DNA of 64,000 nt from Escherichia virus TH57. The position numbers were made by a program, and so were the translations under genes. The stretch lies in the sequence record MT446422.1; one strand, written 5' to 3'. Positions 3,086 to 40,521 of this stretch are shown here, one piece after another (position 1 is the first letter of the stretch; each line of letters opens with the position of its first letter). Below the pieces are notes generated by a model, which did no database searches, was not told the origin of the DNA, and worked only from the letters and a program-made list of their open reading frames with translations.

Positions 3086-3340
3086 ATGACTAAAGATGAT
3101 TTCCTGGATGCAGTAGAAAAAGCCAGCGAACAGTTTGAAGTGATGGGTGTACGTGTCCATAAAGACCGAAATTACGGACTTGATGTTCAAACGTATTCTC
3201 TATGGCTTGTAGGCGAGCATAGTCTTGTAACCACTTTAGTTATGGGTGTAGATACTTATCCTTTGTTAGTCAAGTTCAGAAGTCTGGAAAAAGCTACTAA
3301 AGAAATGACCAAACTTGGTAAATGGCTCGACAAAATTTAA
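3086..3340 (+). CDS. hypothetical early protein
   Basis: Track ORF 3074..3340 begins at TTG; first ATG at 3086 (MTKDDF). Confidence 0.4.
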   Translation: MTKDDFLDAVEKASEQFEVMGVRVHKDRNYGLDVQTYSLWLVGEHSLVTTLVMGVDTYPLLVKFRSLEKATKEMTKLGKWLDKI

Positions 3341-3403
3341 AAAGTTGTTTGCACTATCTTTAAACATGATATTATACCTATCAAAACAAATGAGGAAATT
3401 AAA

Positions 3404-3766
3404 ATGGAAATCGGCAAAAAATATGAGTTCAATCCAAATCGTATTAAATCTTTCATTGATAATAGTTCATCGAATGCTAGTATGGTTGACATCATCCAAG
3501 AAAATGGTGGTTGGTTTGAAGTTAAATCAATATCAAGGGCAGACGGTCTTGATTATGTAACCGAAATCATTTGCGCTAACGGTGCAATCTATAATGATGA
3601 TGGTATGGGTGATGATTATTTTGAACTTAGTGAAGAAGAGTTTTATTGCTTCCGAGAATACTCCAGTTATACAAAAACACCTTCAGGAGCGGTTTCTATT
3701 AATTGTGTTGTAGATGCTAATAACGTCGACCAAATCATTGAACTTCTGCAAAAAGCTTTCAAATAA
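3404..3766 (+). CDS. hypothetical early protein (paralog of 2716..3084)
   Basis: 120-aa ORF, SD GAGGAAA; shares motifs with 2716..3084. Confidence 0.5.
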   Translation: MEIGKKYEFNPNRIKSFIDNSSSNASMVDIIQENGGWFEVKSISRADGLDYVTEIICANGAIYNDDGMGDDYFELSEEEFYCFREYSSYTKTPSGAVSINCVVDANNVDQIIELLQKAFK

Positions 3767-7243: not shown

Positions 7244-9499
7244 ATGCAAGTACAAAAAAGTAGTGGCGTATCTCAAGATTTTGATGGCCAGAAAATTATT
7301 AAAGTTCTTTCCTGGTCATGCGAAGGAACCAATATCGACCCGTATGAATTATACGAAACAATCAAACCACATCTGCGCGATGGTATGACTACTCGCGATA
7401 TTCAGACGGTTATCATCAAAGTGTCTGCTGGACTTATCTCGGTTGAAGAACCAGATTACCAATACGTTGCGGCGAAGGCTACGATGTTTGCTCTGCGTAA
7501 AGATGTTTATGGCCAGTTCGAGCCACGTTCTTTTATTGACCAGATTTCTTATTGTGTCAATGAAGGCAAATATGACCCGGAGCTGTTGTCAAGCTACTCG
7601 GCTGAAGAGATTACTTACCTGGAATCTCGTATCAAGCACGAACGTGATTTTGACCTGACTTATGCAGGCGCGATGCAGTTGAAAGAGAAATACCTGGTTA
7701 AAGATAAAACCACTGGGAAAATCTATGAGACTCCGCAGTTCGCTATCATGGCCATCGGCATGGCACTGCATCAGGATGAACCAACGGACCGTCTGAAGCA
7801 CGTTTGTCGTTTTTATGATGCAGTATCCACGCAGCAGATTTCGTTGCCCACACCTATCATGGCGGGCGCCAGAACACCTACCCGACAGTTCAGTTCATGC
7901 GTGGTTATCGAAGCTGCTGACTCCCTGAAGTCAATTAATAAGACTGCTAATTCAATCATCGAATATATCAGTAAGCGTGCAGGTATCGGTATCAACGTTG
8001 GCATGATTCGTGCTGAAGGTTCGAAAATTGGTATGGGTGAAGTCAAGCATACTGGTGTTATTCCGTTCTGGAAACATTTCCAAACGGCTGTTAAATCCTG
8101 TTCACAAGGTGGAATCCGTGGCGGCGCTGCTACTGCTTATTATCCTATTTGGCATTTGGAAGTTGAAAATTTACTCGTTCTGAAGAACAACAAAGGCGTT
8201 GAAGAAAACCGTATCAGGCATATGGACTATGGTGTCCAGTTGAATAACCTGATGATGGAACGACTGGCCAAGAATGATTACATCACTCTGTTTAGTCCAC
8301 ACGAAGCTGGCGGTGAATTGTATTATTCATATTTTGATAACCCGGATAAATTCCGTGAGTTATATGAAGCCTTAGAAAAAGACCCATCAGTTCGTAAGAA
8401 ACGTATCAAAGCAAAAGATGTATTTGAATTATTCATGACCGAACGTTCCGGTACAGCCAGGGTTTATCCACAATTCGTTGATAACGTGAATGACTATACT
8501 CCGTTCATCCGCGATAAGGCTCCGATTCGTCAATCAAACCTTTGCTGCGAAATTGCAATCCCGACTACTGATGTGAACAGCGAAGACGCTGAAATCGGAT
8601 TGTGCACATTGTCTGCATTTGTTCTGGATAGTTTTGACTGGCAGGACCAAGATAAGATTAACGAGCTAGCCGAAGTTCAAGTTCGTGCTCTTGACAACCT
8701 GTTGGACTATCAGGGTTATCCGGTTAAAGAAGCTCTGAAAGCCAAAAAACGCCGCAACCTGGGTGTTGGGGTTACTAACTATGCTGCATGGCTGGCAAGC
8801 AATTTCGCTTCCTACGCTGATGCAAACGATTTAACGCATGAACTGTTCGAGAGATTACAATATGGCCTTATCCGAGCATCAATCAAGCTCGCCAAAGAAA
8901 AAGGACCTTGCGAATATTATTCAGACACTCGTTGGGCTCGAGGCGAATTACCTATCGACTGGTACAATAAAAAGATTGACCAAATCGCAGCTCCAAACTA
9001 CGTTTGTGACTGGGCGCAGTTGCGGGAAGACCTGGTTGAACATGGCATCCGTAATAGCACATTATCAGCACTTATGCCTTGTGAGTCATCTTCCCAAGTT
9101 TCTAACAGTACAAACGGTATCGAACCTCCGCGTGGACCAGTCTCTATTAAAGAGTCAAAAGAGGGTTCCTTTAATCAAGTCGTGCCCAATATTGAGCACA
9201 ATAAAGGATTGTACGATTACGCATGGGTGTTAGCTAAGCAGGGTAACAAACCTTATCTGACCCAAGTCGCGATTATGTTGAAATGGATTTGTCAGTCAGC
9301 ATCGGCGAATACGTATTATGACCCGCAGAATTATCCGAAAGGAAAAGTTCCGATGTCAGTTATGCTTGACGACTTGATGTACTTCTGGTATTTTGGTGGA
9401 AAAAACCTTTATTATCATAACACTAGAGATGGTTCCGGTACAGACGATTACGAAATCGAAGCTCCTAAAGCAGAAGACTGCTCCGCCTGTAAACTTTGA
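7244..9499 (+). CDS. nrdA: ribonucleoside-diphosphate reductase, alpha (large) subunit
   Basis: 751 aa; class I RNR large-subunit active-site motifs (NLCCEI, ALMPCESSS) and C-terminal Cys pair. Confidence 0.95.
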   Translation: MQVQKSSGVSQDFDGQKIIKVLSWSCEGTNIDPYELYETIKPHLRDGMTTRDIQTVIIKVSAGLISVEEPDYQYVAAKATMFALRKDVYGQFEPRSFIDQISYCVNEGKYDPELLSSYSAEEITYLESRIKHERDFDLTYAGAMQLKEKYLVKDKTTGKIYETPQFAIMAIGMALHQDEPTDRLKHVCRFYDAVSTQQISLPTPIMAGARTPTRQFSSCVVIEAADSLKSINKTANSIIEYISKRAGIGINVGMIRAEGSKIGMGEVKHTGVIPFWKHFQTAVKSCSQGGIRGGAATAYYPIWHLEVENLLVLKNNKGVEENRIRHMDYGVQLNNLMMERLAKNDYITLFSPHEAGGELYYSYFDNPDKFRELYEALEKDPSVRKKRIKAKDVFELFMTERSGTARVYPQFVDNVNDYTPFIRDKAPIRQSNLCCEIAIPTTDVNSEDAEIGLCTLSAFVLDSFDWQDQDKINELAEVQVRALDNLLDYQGYPVKEALKAKKRRNLGVGVTNYAAWLASNFASYADANDLTHELFERLQYGLIRASIKLAKEKGPCEYYSDTRWARGELPIDWYNKKIDQIAAPNYVCDWAQLREDLVEHGIRNSTLSALMPCESSSQVSNSTNGIEPPRGPVSIKESKEGSFNQVVPNIEHNKGLYDYAWVLAKQGNKPYLTQVAIMLKWICQSASANTYYDPQNYPKGKVPMSVMLDDLMYFWYFGGKNLYYHNTRDGSGTDDYEIEAPKAEDCSACKL

Positions 9500-18235: not shown

Positions 18236-18817
18236 ATGAAACCAACTACTGTTCTGCAAATAGCATACCTTGTATCTCAAGAATCAAAATGTTGCTCCTG
18301 GAAAGTGGGAGCTGTTATTGAAAAGAATGGTCGCATTATTTCTACAGGGTATAATGGTTCCCCTGCAGGTGGGGTTAACTGTTGCGAGCATGCAGAGGAG
18401 CAAGGTTGGTTACTGAATAAACCTAAACCTGTTCTCGTCCCTGGTCATAAGCCAGAATGTGTGAGATTCAGTAAGGTTGACCGTTTTGTATTGGCGAAAG
18501 CTCATCGTGAAGAACATTCTGCATGGTCAAAGAACAACGAAATCCATGCTGAGCTTAATGCGATTCTGTTCGCAGCAAGGATGGGTTCGTCAATTGAAGG
18601 CGCTACTATGTATGTGACGCTTTCTCCTTGCCCTGACTGTGCAAAGGCAATTTCTCAATCAGGAATCAAGAAATTGGTTTACTGTGAAACGTATGATAAG
18701 AATATTCCTGGTTGGGATGATATCCTGAAGAATGCAGGAATTGAGGTGTTCAATGTGCCTAAGCGTAGTCTAGACAAATTGAACTGGGAAAACATTAACG
18801 AATTTTGTGGTGAATAA
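18236..18817 (+). CDS. cd: dCMP deaminase
   Basis: 193 aa; zinc-binding deaminase motifs HAELNA and SPCPDCA; same length as T4 Cd. Confidence 0.9.
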   Translation: MKPTTVLQIAYLVSQESKCCSWKVGAVIEKNGRIISTGYNGSPAGGVNCCEHAEEQGWLLNKPKPVLVPGHKPECVRFSKVDRFVLAKAHREEHSAWSKNNEIHAELNAILFAARMGSSIEGATMYVTLSPCPDCAKAISQSGIKKLVYCETYDKNIPGWDDILKNAGIEVFNVPKRSLDKLNWENINEFCGE

Positions 18818-19383: not shown

Positions 19384-19731
19384 ATGACCAAACAACATGG
19401 ATTAAATATGGAATTACCAATTAAAGCAGTAGGTGAATATATTATTTTGGTTTCTGAGCCAAAGCAAGCTGGCGATGAAGAAACTACGGCATCAGGTATC
19501 GTTATCGGAAAACTCCATCAGGGTGAAATCCCAGAGATGTGTGAAGTATTTTCGATTGGCCCAGATGTTCCTGAAGGTTTCTGTGAAGTAGGTGATTTGA
19601 CTCCTCTTCCGGTTGGCAAGATTGCAAACGTTCCACATCCTCTGGTTGCTCTGGGACTTAAGCAGGCTAAAGAAGTTAAGCAGAAATTTGTGACCTGTCA
19701 TTATAAAGCTGTTCCTTGTCTTTATAAGTAA
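19384..19731 (+). CDS. 31: co-chaperonin gp31 (GroES analogue)
   Basis: [67 protein letters not shown] match T4 gp31. Confidence 0.9.
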
Positions 19732-19740
19732 AATTAGCGT

Positions 19741-19748
19741 TATAAATA
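19741..19748 (+). promoter_or_regulatory. T4 late promoter (TATAAATA)
   Basis: Plus-strand TATAAATA; the first ATG of the track ORF at 19754 is too close to be translated from it, supporting the downstream start. Confidence 0.4.
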
Positions 19749-19888
19749 ATAATATGGATTGGCTGCCGGACCAGTTAGTTACCCGGAGAATCCTAAACGG
19801 TGGACTACAACTGAGAGACTTGCCGAAAGGAAGTGAAATTCAGAAGAACGTGTCCACCAAATATTCACCTCATATTGAGGCTTCTAAA

Positions 19889-20143
19889 ATGTCTTTAAAC
19901 AAACAATTACAACACGCTCTTGAACTGCAACGCACTGCATGGAATAACGGTCACGAAAACTACGGCGCATCTATTGATGTTGAAGCCGAAGCACTGGAAA
20001 TTCTGCAGTATTTCAAACATCTTAACCCGGTACAAACCGACCTTCGCGCTGTACTCGAAGCTAAAGATGAATTGAAATATGCTAAGCCGCTGGCATCTGC
20101 TGCGCGTAAAGCTGTTCGACATTTTGTCGTTACTCTGAAGTAA
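19889..20143 (+). CDS. rIII: putative rIII lysis-inhibition accessory protein
   Basis: 84 aa from Met 46 of track ORF 19754..20143; size and position next to gene 31 fit T4 rIII; synteny and size only. Confidence 0.4.
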   Translation: MSLNKQLQHALELQRTAWNNGHENYGASIDVEAEALEILQYFKHLNPVQTDLRAVLEAKDELKYAKPLASAARKAVRHFVVTLK

Positions 20144-20389
20144 GTTTTAGGTGATTCGCTACCTTAAGTGCGGCTAGAAAATCGAGGAGCCGTCGAACTG
20201 TCTGATTAATGATTTGCGAATCATTATAGTTTTAAGACCCCGGCAGTTTTATGGTGTACCTCTTGAATGTGAATGATGACGGGTTTATGGTTATCCTGGT
20301 CGTTAAATATCCAAAAACCTATGTTCCCTTCGAGGGCTTGCGCAGGCAATGTCAATAAGTCCTGCATTCTATTTTAAAGAGAATTTAAT

Positions 20390-20551
20390 ATGGCTAAGAA
20401 AGAAGTTAAAGTTGTTGATGGCTCCTCCAAACGCGCTGGTTACAAGCGTGCGTCCAACAAGCGAATCAATCAGGTGACTGATAAACTTCAGGCTCGTGCT
20501 CGTGCGGTATTGCGTGCCGATGCAGCTTGCTTTGGTAAGCCGAAAGCATAA
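20390..20551 (+). CDS. small basic protein (53 aa), hypothetical
   Basis: Read from sequence: MAKKEVKVVDGSSKRAGYKRASNKR...; below the track size cutoff; followed at once by a strong terminator; SD weak. Confidence 0.3.
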   Translation: MAKKEVKVVDGSSKRAGYKRASNKRINQVTDKLQARARAVLRADAACFGKPKA

Positions 20552-20556
20552 GTTCA

Positions 20557-20581
20557 GGGGCTCTTCGGAGCCCTTTTTTTT
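20557..20581 (+). terminator. Rho-independent terminator
   Basis: GGGCTC-TTCG-GAGCCC hairpin plus 8-T run. Confidence 0.65.
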
Positions 20582-22382: not shown

Positions 22383-22595
22383 ATGTTTAAGAAATTGATT
22401 CAGAAGATTTTGGGCACAGAAATGGTTGAAGTGACTTATCGCGTGACCGACGTAAGTCCATGGGCCCGAAATATTGAACCATATACTAAAACAATTAAAA
22501 TGCTGAAATCTGACGGCGGATTATCTATTAAAGACCGTCTACCTGGTTATGGTCATTGGGCTGATGTAGAGATTATCAGTGTCAAAGATATTTAA
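22383..22595 (+). CDS. hypothetical 70-aa protein, tandem paralog A
   Basis: MFKKLIQKILGTEMVEVTYRVTD...SIKDRLPGYGHW...IISVKDI parallels the next ORF. Confidence 0.45.
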   Translation: MFKKLIQKILGTEMVEVTYRVTDVSPWARNIEPYTKTIKMLKSDGGLSIKDRLPGYGHWADVEIISVKDI

Positions 22596-22604
22596 GGAAC
22601 CTTC

Positions 22605-22817
22605 ATGATTAATAAATTATTTAAAAAGCTGTTTGGCTTGGAAATGGTTGAAGTGACTTATCGTGTTATTGATTTATCACCGCCATATGCTTGCGATGAA
22701 GATGCTATTAAAACTGTTGTTATGCGAAAAACATATCGCGGGCGGTCAATTAAAGAAAGATTGCCAGACCATGGCATGTGGTATGCAACCAAGATTATCA
22801 GTGTCAAAGATGTCTGA
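22605..22817 (+). CDS. hypothetical 70-aa protein, tandem paralog B
   Basis: MINKLFKKLFGLEMVEVTYRVID...SIKERLPDHGMW...IISVKDV. Confidence 0.45.
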   Translation: MINKLFKKLFGLEMVEVTYRVIDLSPPYACDEDAIKTVVMRKTYRGRSIKERLPDHGMWYATKIISVKDV

Positions 22818-36537: not shown

Positions 36538-36705
36538 ATGTCAGATAAGATTTGTGTTGTCTGTAAAACTCCAATCGATTCTGCATTGGTTGTGGATACA
36601 GACCAAGGTCCGGTGCATCCGGGCGCCTGTTATAATTATGTTCAGAGTTTGCCAGTTACGGAAAATACAGAAGAGCAACTGAACGAGACCCAACTTTTAA
36701 TTTAG
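36538..36705 (+). CDS. small Cys-containing hypothetical protein (55 aa)
   Basis: SD GAGGAGA; MSDKICVVCKTPID...; followed by terminator; below the track cutoff. Confidence 0.3.
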   Translation: MSDKICVVCKTPIDSALVVDTDQGPVHPGACYNYVQSLPVTENTEEQLNETQLLI

Positions 36706-36732
36706 CTAGTGTTGTTAACCATTTTTGGTTTT

Positions 36733-36760
36733 GCCCCTTCCTTTTGGTTGGGGCCTTTTT
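36733..36760 (+). terminator. Rho-independent terminator after the uvsY operon
   Basis: GCCCC ... GGGGC stem followed by CTTTTTA. Confidence 0.45.
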
Positions 36761-36762
36761 AT

Positions 36763-40355: not shown

Positions 40356-40362
40356 TTAAAAA

Positions 40363-40387
40363 GGGACCTTCGGGTCCCTTTATTTTT
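40363..40387 (+). terminator. Rho-independent terminator after hoc
   Basis: GGGACC-TTCG-GGTCCC hairpin plus T-run. Confidence 0.7.
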
Positions 40388-40474
40388 ATGGTACTGAGCA
40401 AACGTTGCCTGGGCCCCTTTCTCCGGTAAGTCCTTGTGGCCACCATAACAATTGTTCATCTGGCATAAAAACAT

Positions 40475-40504
40475 GTTTACAAGTTAAAAATTCCATGTTA
40501 AGAT
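40475..40504 (+). promoter_or_regulatory. T4-type early promoter
   Basis: GTTTACA, 17 nt, TAAGAT. Confidence 0.4.
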
Positions 40505-40521
40505 AGCTTCACCAACTCAAC

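Follow-up and report, generated by a model that had tools for sequence, protein, structure and literature searches.

What does a T4-like coliphage keep between rIII and 30.9? In a stretch of 64,000 nucleotides (nt) from Escherichia virus TH57 (record MT446422.1), hereafter the window, these two genes are separated by a spacer at 20144-20389 (+ strand) that overlaps no open reading frame (ORF) of at least 60 amino acids (aa) on either strand, as a sequence-only reading of this DNA had pointed out. The surroundings are as densely packed as that reading described, since a six-frame count leaves 96.5% of the window covered by ORFs and 3.5% uncovered. By the same count, 20144-20465 (322 nt) is the longest stretch of the window outside ORFs of at least 60 aa, the next-largest being 36540-36762 (223 nt) and 40356-40521 (166 nt). 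The spacer had also been described as more GC-rich than its surroundings, which is not the case: its GC content is 0.402 against a window mean of 0.414, at the 38th percentile of 246-nt windows (local 15-25 kb mean, 0.397; rIII, 0.435; 30.9, 0.488). A structured noncoding RNA, a long regulatory leader and a decayed gene remnant were proposed for it. The feature that escaped this reading is that the first 36-40 nt of the spacer are a copy of a ToxI antitoxin RNA, and the spacer as a whole is, in our judgement, probably best read as an RNA counter-defence element of the pseudo-ToxI kind.

When the spacer was compared with 5,426 complete Escherichia coli genomes, only its first ~44 nt found matches, at 76 places in 53 genomes, 72 of the 76 lying on plasmids; the remaining 209 nt had no BLAST match in 72,556 plasmids or in the 5,426 genomes (E <= 1). 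The matches on plasmids pMB9_2 and pU90-1 are 36-37-nt tandem repeats directly upstream of annotated ToxN/AbiQ toxin genes. These repeats are ToxI antitoxin arrays, and pMB9_2 encodes the E. coli ToxN of known structure (PDB 7D8O, E = 3e-113), near the ToxN of P. atrosepticum (PDB 2XD0). The window carries a single ToxI-like unit, or pseudo-ToxI, AGGTGATTCGCTACCTTAAGTGCGGCTAGAAAATC, at 20149-20183 on the + strand, which is identical to the pMB9_2 repeat at 33/36 positions and to both the annotated pseudo-ToxI of phage phiTE and repeat 3 of pU90-1 over 25/25 consecutive bases. The match has an E value of 2e-3 against the 28 Gb of E. coli genomes and of 3.6e-8 in our local sequence set. The unit departs from ToxI by U9C together with A25G (a compensating pair), by a loop shortened from UUU to UU, and by one extra 3' A, differences that correspond to phiTE mutation groups 2, 3, and 5; C27 and U28, bases of the major ToxN interface, are kept, as C20174 and T20175, where phiTE has G and A. 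We are therefore dealing, almost certainly, with a ToxI-type unit at 20149-20183.

Family searches neither add to nor detract from this assignment. An Rfam covariance-model scan, a check proposed in the sequence-only reading, would not have revealed the unit: it returned nothing for 20144-20389 at E <= 10 and nothing at gathering score across the window, and at E <= 0.1 Rfam was silent on the genuine pMB9_2 ToxI repeats too, so that its silence is uninformative about ToxI. ARAGORN placed no tRNA or tmRNA in the spacer. Mimicry of a type I-F CRISPR repeat, suggested by a 9-nt identity in the T4 version (TTCACTGCC), was abandoned: the Cas6f stem CUGCC/GGCAG is missing, and the variant in the window deviates from the repeat yet preserves the pairing of ToxI.

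The published ToxI layout consists of stems 1a/1b and 2a/2b, 2a and 1b being separated by a short loop and 1b and 2b by a longer one (PMC3401426), and the helices and loops of the window unit agree with this pattern. Helix 1 joins 20150-20153 with 20160-20163 and helix 2 joins 20157-20159 with 20170-20172, both derived from the sequence and one literature-named pair (U9-A25) rather than from a crystal structure, and all seven pairs form in the window. Across plasmid and phage units, 96.8% of cells are paired with 9 units aligned and 95.9% with 14, compared with 32-74% in slid-partner controls. Pair 9-25 appears as U-A, C-G, or A-U in different phages, and pair 10-24 is A-U in T4. At its 3' end the unit runs into a ToxN-type site, AAAU cut between AA and AU (20179-20182), within the flank GAAAAUCG, the AAAU being present also in the pU90-1 and phiTE flanks.

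In E. coli carrying ToxIN, ToxI pseudoknots keep the RNase ToxN inactive, and the shutoff of host transcription by T-even phages frees ToxN, which then cuts phage RNA. Full-length ToxI has a half-life of 3.2-4 min and the processed single repeat one of 13 min (PMC5772629); given this short half-life and the restriction of T-even phages by toxIN, a phage-made supply of antitoxin is a plausible countermeasure. We propose that the spacer would be transcribed on the + strand within the rIII-30.9 message, ending at the terminator at 20556, that the unit would then fold into the ToxI pseudoknot and be cleaved by ToxN at the 3' site between AA and AU, and that it would occupy ToxN as ToxI does, such that the toxin would stay inhibited and infection would proceed. 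Transcription, processing, and actual ToxN inhibition by the unit are steps that we infer. In a single cloned ToxI repeat, changes of groups 2, 3, and 5, singly or combined, leave full antitoxic activity, whereas C27G or U28A abolished it, and this change (group 4) is what inactivated the phiTE version (PMC3475682); this published mutagenesis predicts that the window variant would be active. There are thus good grounds for thinking it rather probable that the unit neutralises ToxN in infection. A type III toxin-antitoxin (TA) locus combines a tandem array, a terminator hairpin, and toxN. The spacer contains no direct repeat of the unit, exactly one unit being present, and the next gene is 30.9; with a single unit and no toxN, the element is a mimic, not a TA locus.

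Several observations weigh against a role in neutralising ToxN. Wild-type phiTE, with 1.5 repeats, is ToxIN-sensitive and escapes only through repeat expansion (PMC3475682). The unit of T2, T4, and T6 has diverged, being 68% identical to that of the window with an A4-G13 mismatch in helix 1, and this T4-type unit has no match or cognate in E. coli genomes; E. coli toxIN carried on a plasmid strongly restricts the same three phages (PMC9391042). RB69, although it lacks a ToxI unit, is restricted less than T2, T4, or T6, so that resistance in this set of four does not follow the unit, and we reject the unit as the cause of the lower toxIN sensitivity of RB69. The authors of that work attributed the sensitivity differences among the four to TifA (PMC9391042), and a pattern that does not follow the unit is explained by TifA rather than by this RNA. 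The flanks count on the same side: the 5' flank UAAGUUUUAGG, with the tail GUUUU (20144-20148), has no AAAU site, leaving ToxN unable to trim the 5' end to the natural AUUC/AUUU overhang, and the 3' flank GAAAAUCG differs from the strict GAAAU site, cut after GAA, of the solved E. coli toxin. E. coli ToxIN systems moreover fall into at least five clusters with differing overhang specificity (PMC8860590). The weakness of the missing 5' site is softened because the 3' overhang outweighs the 5' overhang for binding (PMC8860590) and precursor ToxI neutralises ToxN as processed ToxI does (PMC5086642). Finally, the RNA modules that follow the unit, described below as A, D, and E, have no counterpart on plasmids or in E. 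coli genomes, nor does one adjoin any of 80 toxN loci of other bacteria, although these loci come mostly from Firmicutes and cyanobacteria and make a weak test for enterobacteria. Nothing connects these modules with defence. With no plasmid, E. coli, or toxN-locus match, the idea that modules A, D, and E are copies of another bacterial antitoxin or small RNA was set aside.

The unit could instead be an inactive scar of recombination with a toxIN plasmid, the spacer around it serving as a cis-acting untranslated region (UTR) that sets processing, stability, and translation of the rIII/30.9 message, an explanation we hold to be unlikely. Its first half draws on the way in which the unit comes and goes: between the window (20141-20190) and RB69 (L073 of the local set, 7590-7610, - strand), presence and absence differ by a clean 38-nt insertion or deletion (indel) at GTAAGT^AAATCGAGG. 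The RB69 spacer begins GTAAGT-AAATCGAGG, and the retained AAATC.AGG resembles the toxI repeat junction, a possible microhomology used in acquiring the unit, which suggests an origin by recombination. The diverged copy of the toxIN-sensitive T4 and the missing 5' ToxN site also suit a scar. A scar would, however, decay, and this unit has not: among 111 matching phage records, 73, mainly from Gaprivervirus and Mosigvirus, match at least 80% of the length of the window-type unit, 60 are at least 95% identical, and conservation among the records listed is 94-100%. Every position known to matter is retained, and in independent lineages of phages the unit persists as exactly one intact copy whose pseudoknot has undergone compensatory changes.

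These occurrences have gone largely unannotated, phiTE being the only one to annotate the unit among the 40 of the 111 matching records that were listed, and, in the literature searched, we found no paper describing phage ToxI units outside phiTE. T4-like phages of Klebsiella carry, in the same rIII-30.9 spacer, a unit nearer the plasmid sequence. One complete unannotated unit each is found in Salmonella phage 7-11, where AAAU lies on both sides and a terminator follows, in Kuravirus XT32, in the T5-like Kenya-K36, in Vibrio phage JSF10, in Acinetobacter phage PhT2, and in Yersinia phage TG1; in Kenya-K36, JSF10, and PhT2 the unit is flanked by tRNA genes. The interval from tRNA-Gly to tRNA-Gln in Pectobacterium phage DU_PP_I contains three near-perfect repeats. 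In the local sequence set, the solitary units and the DU_PP_I repeats lie at L154 ~706-745, L155 ~700-745, L156 701-745, L159 601-640, L158 ~601-640, L157 601-636, and L072 801-905.

The rest of the spacer is conserved as well. BLAST matched it in ~800 phage records, and its identity to T4 is 91%, compared with 82% for rIII and 67% for 30.9, rising to 95.2% for modules A-E (the spacer minus its first ~40 nt); conserved above its neighbouring genes, the spacer is under selection of its own. This selection does not act on a protein. Relatives differ by 1-nt indels (GACGGG vs GACGAGG, CCTGGTC vs CCTGTC, CCAAAAACC vs CCAAAACC) and by insertions of 50-160 nt that share a single site, following GAATGT at 20271, which all the short ORFs of the spacer contain, so that the spacer is non-coding, and substitutions are compensatory across helices without codon periodicity. 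A decayed or unrecognised protein gene, for which ORFs of 34-47 aa could be put forward (20251-20358 and 20273-20377 on the + strand, 20224-20367 on the - strand) and which some depositors have implied by annotating hypothetical proteins across the spacer, is accordingly hard to credit at all: the indels and the insertions at 20271 fall inside the candidates, and the substitutions compensate helices rather than follow codons. The suggestion of a gene remnant thus fails, the short ORFs being disrupted in close relatives, and no frameshifted gene spanning the spacer was found.

Of the three initial proposals it is the structured noncoding RNA that the alignments bear out, through conservation above the flanking genes and compensatory changes that keep helices paired. 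Folding energy has no part in this: the predicted stability of the spacer does not exceed that of shuffled sequence (+ strand, z = -0.28; - strand, z = -0.39), and the evidence for structure therefore rests on covariation. Module A (20181-20268, + strand) is an 88-nt compound hairpin of 24 pairs in RNAalifold. Its P1 joins 20184-20187 with 20259-20262, P2 and P3 follow, and the apical P4 joins 20207-20214 with 20219-20226 around the loop TGCG, which is the first hairpin noticed from the sequence, TAATGATT-TGCG-AATCATTA, at 20207-20226; an asymmetric internal loop reads UAGUUUUAAGACCCC. The same module A helices, this hairpin included, are present in the minimum-free-energy (MFE) fold. Double changes occur in 6/24 pairs (RNAalifold), 99.0% of cells are paired against 25-63% for slid partners, and the covariation score was reached by 0/500 shuffles. 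Pairs 9-84 and 15-78 (alignment A2) are invariantly G-U and fix the strand of module A, indicating an RNA made from the + strand. In a Salmonella T4-like phage the inner two thirds of the module are replaced by a short loop and the outer helices are kept. Scanning viral contigs for a longer module-A pattern (ATCGRGGAGCYRTCGA, a gap, GTCTGAT) gave 12 matches and scanning metagenomes for GGAGCYRTCGA, a gap, and TTTTAYGGTGYRCC gave 7; both scans returned T4-like contigs or transferred copies like that of phage muut described below, together with two short metagenome contigs with a T-even rIII-30.9 context.

Module D (20270-20319, + strand) follows as a 6-bp hairpin, 20278-20283 with 20295-20301, closed by the 11-nt loop UUUAUGGUUAU, with AUGAU as its 5' flank and a conserved 3' tail, GUUAAAUAUCCAAAAAC, that contains the second AAAU. 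Its pairs 10-32 and 11-31 switch among A-U, U-A, G-C, and C-G between lineages, 90.5% of cells are paired, and its covariation score was again reached by 0/500 shuffles. A covariance model of the module finds it once in the window, at 62.8 bits (the runner-up scores 14.7 bits), and as a single copy in 22/28 sources scanned, which are 22/23 of the Tevenvirinae spacers or horizontally transferred copies; it finds none in the T4 tRNA region, toxIN plasmids, phiTE, or DU_PP_I. Module E (20323-20365, + strand), taken from the MFE fold and the alignment, comprises two hairpins. E1 is CCCT-TCG-AGGG at 20326-20336, the other hairpin seen at the outset and likewise part of the MFE fold, followed by CUUGCG, and E2 pairs GCAGG (20342-20346) with CCTGC (20361-20365) across a 14-nt loop. 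By eye in the alignment, E1 covaries between CCC/GGG and GCC/GGC (L036), and E2 between GCAGG/CCTGC and ACTGG/CCAGT (L028 and L031). Modules A, D, and E are very probably real RNA structures. Two further kinds of pairing were tried and rejected. One was trans-acting seed pairing, since nowhere else in the window is there a site complementary to the tail of module D or to the loop of module A; the other was a long-range helix joining the 5' end to the tail of module D, which would fall in different registers in the window and in T4.

Between modules A and D lies a cassette junction (20271-20272), recognised by a BLAST split at query positions 127/130 and in the alignment, where relatives carry inserts of 6, 50-57, or 150-159 nt. 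Close relatives hold there either module C, a ~57-nt D-like hairpin, or module B, a pseudoknotted RNA of ~150-160 nt, and the window and T4 hold neither. Module B, which the window lacks and which belongs to no Rfam family, is more than 91% identical across most of 407 T4-like records; these come from phages that infect Klebsiella, Enterobacter, Serratia, Edwardsiella, and E. coli. In the local sequences (L005 ~520-675; L029 ~1870-2010) it is closed by a stem and contains a hairpin-loop pseudoknot that covaries (CGATGG/CCATCG with TATACA/TGTATA).

Junctions of this kind raise the thought of an element acting as DNA, namely a replication origin, a recombination hotspot, or a homing site. Both the junction at 20271 and the ToxI slot are recombination-prone, and the ATK47 record has an "ori type 2 repeat" of 10 nt near the start of 30.9. 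Against this stand the invariant G-U pairs, which on the other strand would be A-C mismatches and argue for a single-stranded + strand RNA, as well as the lack of iterons or repeats in the window, where module D occurs once; the ATK47 repeat is a 10-nt automatic feature, and a replication origin was rejected. The known T4 origins, moreover, are located elsewhere, and we rate a DNA-level element as very improbable.

The cis-acting UTR, the second half of the explanation that treats the unit as a scar, has its support at the far end of the spacer, where module D and hairpin E1 are almost always next to 30.9. In the 30.9 translation-initiation region (20366-20389, + strand), AUUCU (20366-20370) pairs with AGAAU (20380-20384) in the MFE fold, the resulting hairpin covering the Shine-Dalgarno purines AAGAG (20377-20381), and T4 has the equivalent AUUUUC/GAGAAU. 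This final hairpin would sequester the 30.9 Shine-Dalgarno sequence, as judged from the predicted fold. The proposed long regulatory leader accordingly survives for the last ~25 nt and is given up for the rest of the spacer. What speaks against a UTR function of the whole is that Vequintavirinae and Justusliebigvirus phages with neither rIII nor 30.9 have captured modules A and D, or the entire block, into their tRNA arrays, so that the value of the modules is independent of those genes. In phage muut (Justusliebigvirus), the whole T4-type spacer lies between tRNA-Gly and tRNA-Gln, the same slot as the DU_PP_I repeats, and after it the start codon of 30.9 is joined directly to the final 26 codons of rIII. 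The muut copy (L002 3009-3335) appears circularly permuted relative to T4, running through the spacer, the 30.9 ribosome-binding site and ATG, the end of rIII, and TAATTTAT again, which suggests capture via a circular or tandem intermediate. Two Vequintavirinae phages carry modules A and D, ~80% identical, followed by a tRNA-like RNA, by tRNA-Met, and by a T4 rnaD homologue.

The company that the block keeps in these arrays lends itself to another account, in which its modules are stable small RNAs with a housekeeping or host-takeover role like T4 rnaC and rnaD and the likeness to ToxI is incidental. Elsewhere the block lies within tRNA arrays beside tRNA-like RNAs and rnaD homologues, modules A and B are closed by a terminal stem as processed stable RNAs are, and conservation is very high. 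The modules nevertheless have no similarity to rnaC or rnaD (best BLAST, 10-16 nt, E >= 0.78) and no Rfam family, the ToxI match is specific and far beyond chance, and accessory modules are gained and lost between near-identical phages, which is more typical of counter-defence cargo; we consider this account quite unlikely. Homologues of T4 rnaD (species 2 RNA; reference position L043 3054-3172, - strand) adjoin ToxI-like or A+D cassettes in the Vequintavirinae phages UPEC06 (L003 ~3340-3440) and in phiTE (L071 ~1060-1180). UPEC06 also has, directly after module D (L003 3164-3242), a tRNA-like sequence that scores 35.8 bits with the Rfam tRNA model and is uncalled by ARAGORN; its relatives occur in Felixounavirus-type and Klebsiella phages, and two such records say "tRNA-OTHER".

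Our working view, which extends the counter-defence reading, is that modules A, D, E1, and E2 may be additional RNAs, stable or processed, that are kept in the exchangeable slot shared with the ToxI unit, with only the last hairpin acting in cis, on 30.9 translation. A bolder form of it is doubtful: the spacer of T-even phages, T4 included, would be an exchangeable island of RNA-only counter-defence cassettes, the ToxI mimic being joined by modules A and D in the window and by B and C in relatives, each inhibiting or diverting a different host RNase or RNA-dependent defence and moving between phage families via the tRNA-array slots where rnaC/rnaD-type RNAs also lie.

The genes around the spacer are those of a T4-like coliphage, the nearest record being Escherichia virus TH54 with 99.4% identity across the rIII-30.9 region. 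Upstream on the + strand lie the genes for dCMP deaminase (18236-18817) and gp31 (19384-19731), followed by a 157-nt gap (19732-19888) with the late-promoter motif TATAAATA at 19741-19748, and then by the homologue of rIII (19889-20143, + strand), an 84-aa lysis-inhibition accessory protein annotated as such in the matched records of T4 and its relatives and present in 35 IMG/VR relatives; the listed ORF start at 19754 over-extends rIII, whose T4-type start is 19889. The T4 reference record annotates no feature between rIII and 30.9, and a search of the literature for T4 transcript maps covering the spacer turned up none that could be used. Downstream, the small Lys/Arg-rich ORF that the sequence-only reading had singled out (20390-20551, + strand, 53 aa) proves to be a real and conserved gene, a gp30.9 homologue that matches PHROG 1427 over residues 1-53 (E = 2.9e-26), with the motif SKRAGYKR in 36 related loci, and 30.9 is the next conserved gene downstream of rIII in 36/37 loci. 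No Pfam family, including a Pfam ToxN domain, matches the protein. The terminator that the same reading had placed after this ORF is likewise there, an intrinsic terminator at 20556-20581 (+ strand) whose 8-bp stem, AGGGGCTC/GAGCCCTT (20556-20575, five GC pairs, loop TTCG), is followed by TTTTTT; it would end the transcription unit made up of rIII, the RNA block, and 30.9, and the ATK47 record annotates a terminator at the equivalent position. Farther downstream, the adjacent 70-aa ORFs at 22383-22595 and 22605-22817 are paralogues formed by tandem duplication, both containing ...EMVEVTYRV... and ending ...IISVKD.

RNA mimicry of a type III antitoxin has until now rested on one laboratory case, phiTE, and there it needed selected repeat expansion. 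What is new here is a ToxI unit, intact and, to judge from its bases, apparently of the active type, that is fixed in natural T-even-like coliphages, with solitary units in at least six other phage groups. This gives a candidate function to part of a spacer left unannotated in the T4 reference genome, and it offers an account, open to direct testing, of why therapeutic and model coliphages differ in their sensitivity to toxIN. Repeats of the ToxI kind were detectable in 53 of 5,426 complete E. coli genomes. Besides, the ~200 nt of covariation-supported RNA in modules A, D, and E and the widespread module B add folded phage RNAs outside known families. We see the unit as a phage RNA antitoxin mimic in what may be a broader RNA cassette locus.

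Among known systems, the closest is the pseudo-ToxI of Pectobacterium phage phiTE (Blower et al. 2012, PMC3475682), like the window unit an intergenic, noncoding phage copy of a ToxI repeat, with which it shares 25 consecutive bases, the U9C/A25G, UU, and extra-A variants, and antitoxin RNA mimicry as the proposed action. In phiTE, however, the DNA holds 1.5 repeats, no full pseudoknot is encoded, the inactivating changes C27G/U28A are present, and protection appears only at 4.5-5.5 repeats (PMC3475682), whereas the window has one full core with C27 and U28 and no tandem array from which expansion could start, and it comes from another family of phages with another host; its unit also lies within an mRNA between two genes and is followed by other RNA modules, and that of phiTE lies in a tRNA region. 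TifA has the same target, ToxN, in the same phage group, but is a protein encoded at another locus (PMC9391042, PMC10853763), beside which the ToxI-like unit would be a second, RNA-based route. With the ToxI of E. coli and P. atrosepticum (PDB 7D8O, 2XDB) the window shares the 36-nt unit (33/36), the two pseudoknot helices, the A-rich 3' ToxN site, and the contact bases. Genuine toxI differs in having 3-5.6 tandem repeats and its own promoter, followed by a terminator and toxN, whereas the window has one unit in a phage promoter context, without toxN or a 5' cleavage site. Solitary-repeat RNA anti-CRISPRs (Racr) are orphan repeat RNAs made by phages that divert the host defence protein normally binding such repeats, and the window unit would follow the same logic with a different RNA and against a different defence system. 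The spacer modules, finally, resemble T4 rnaC and rnaD (species 1 and 2) as small folded phage RNAs without a protein product, and differ from them in having no detectable sequence similarity and in lying outside the T4 tRNA cluster, where rnaC and rnaD are located.

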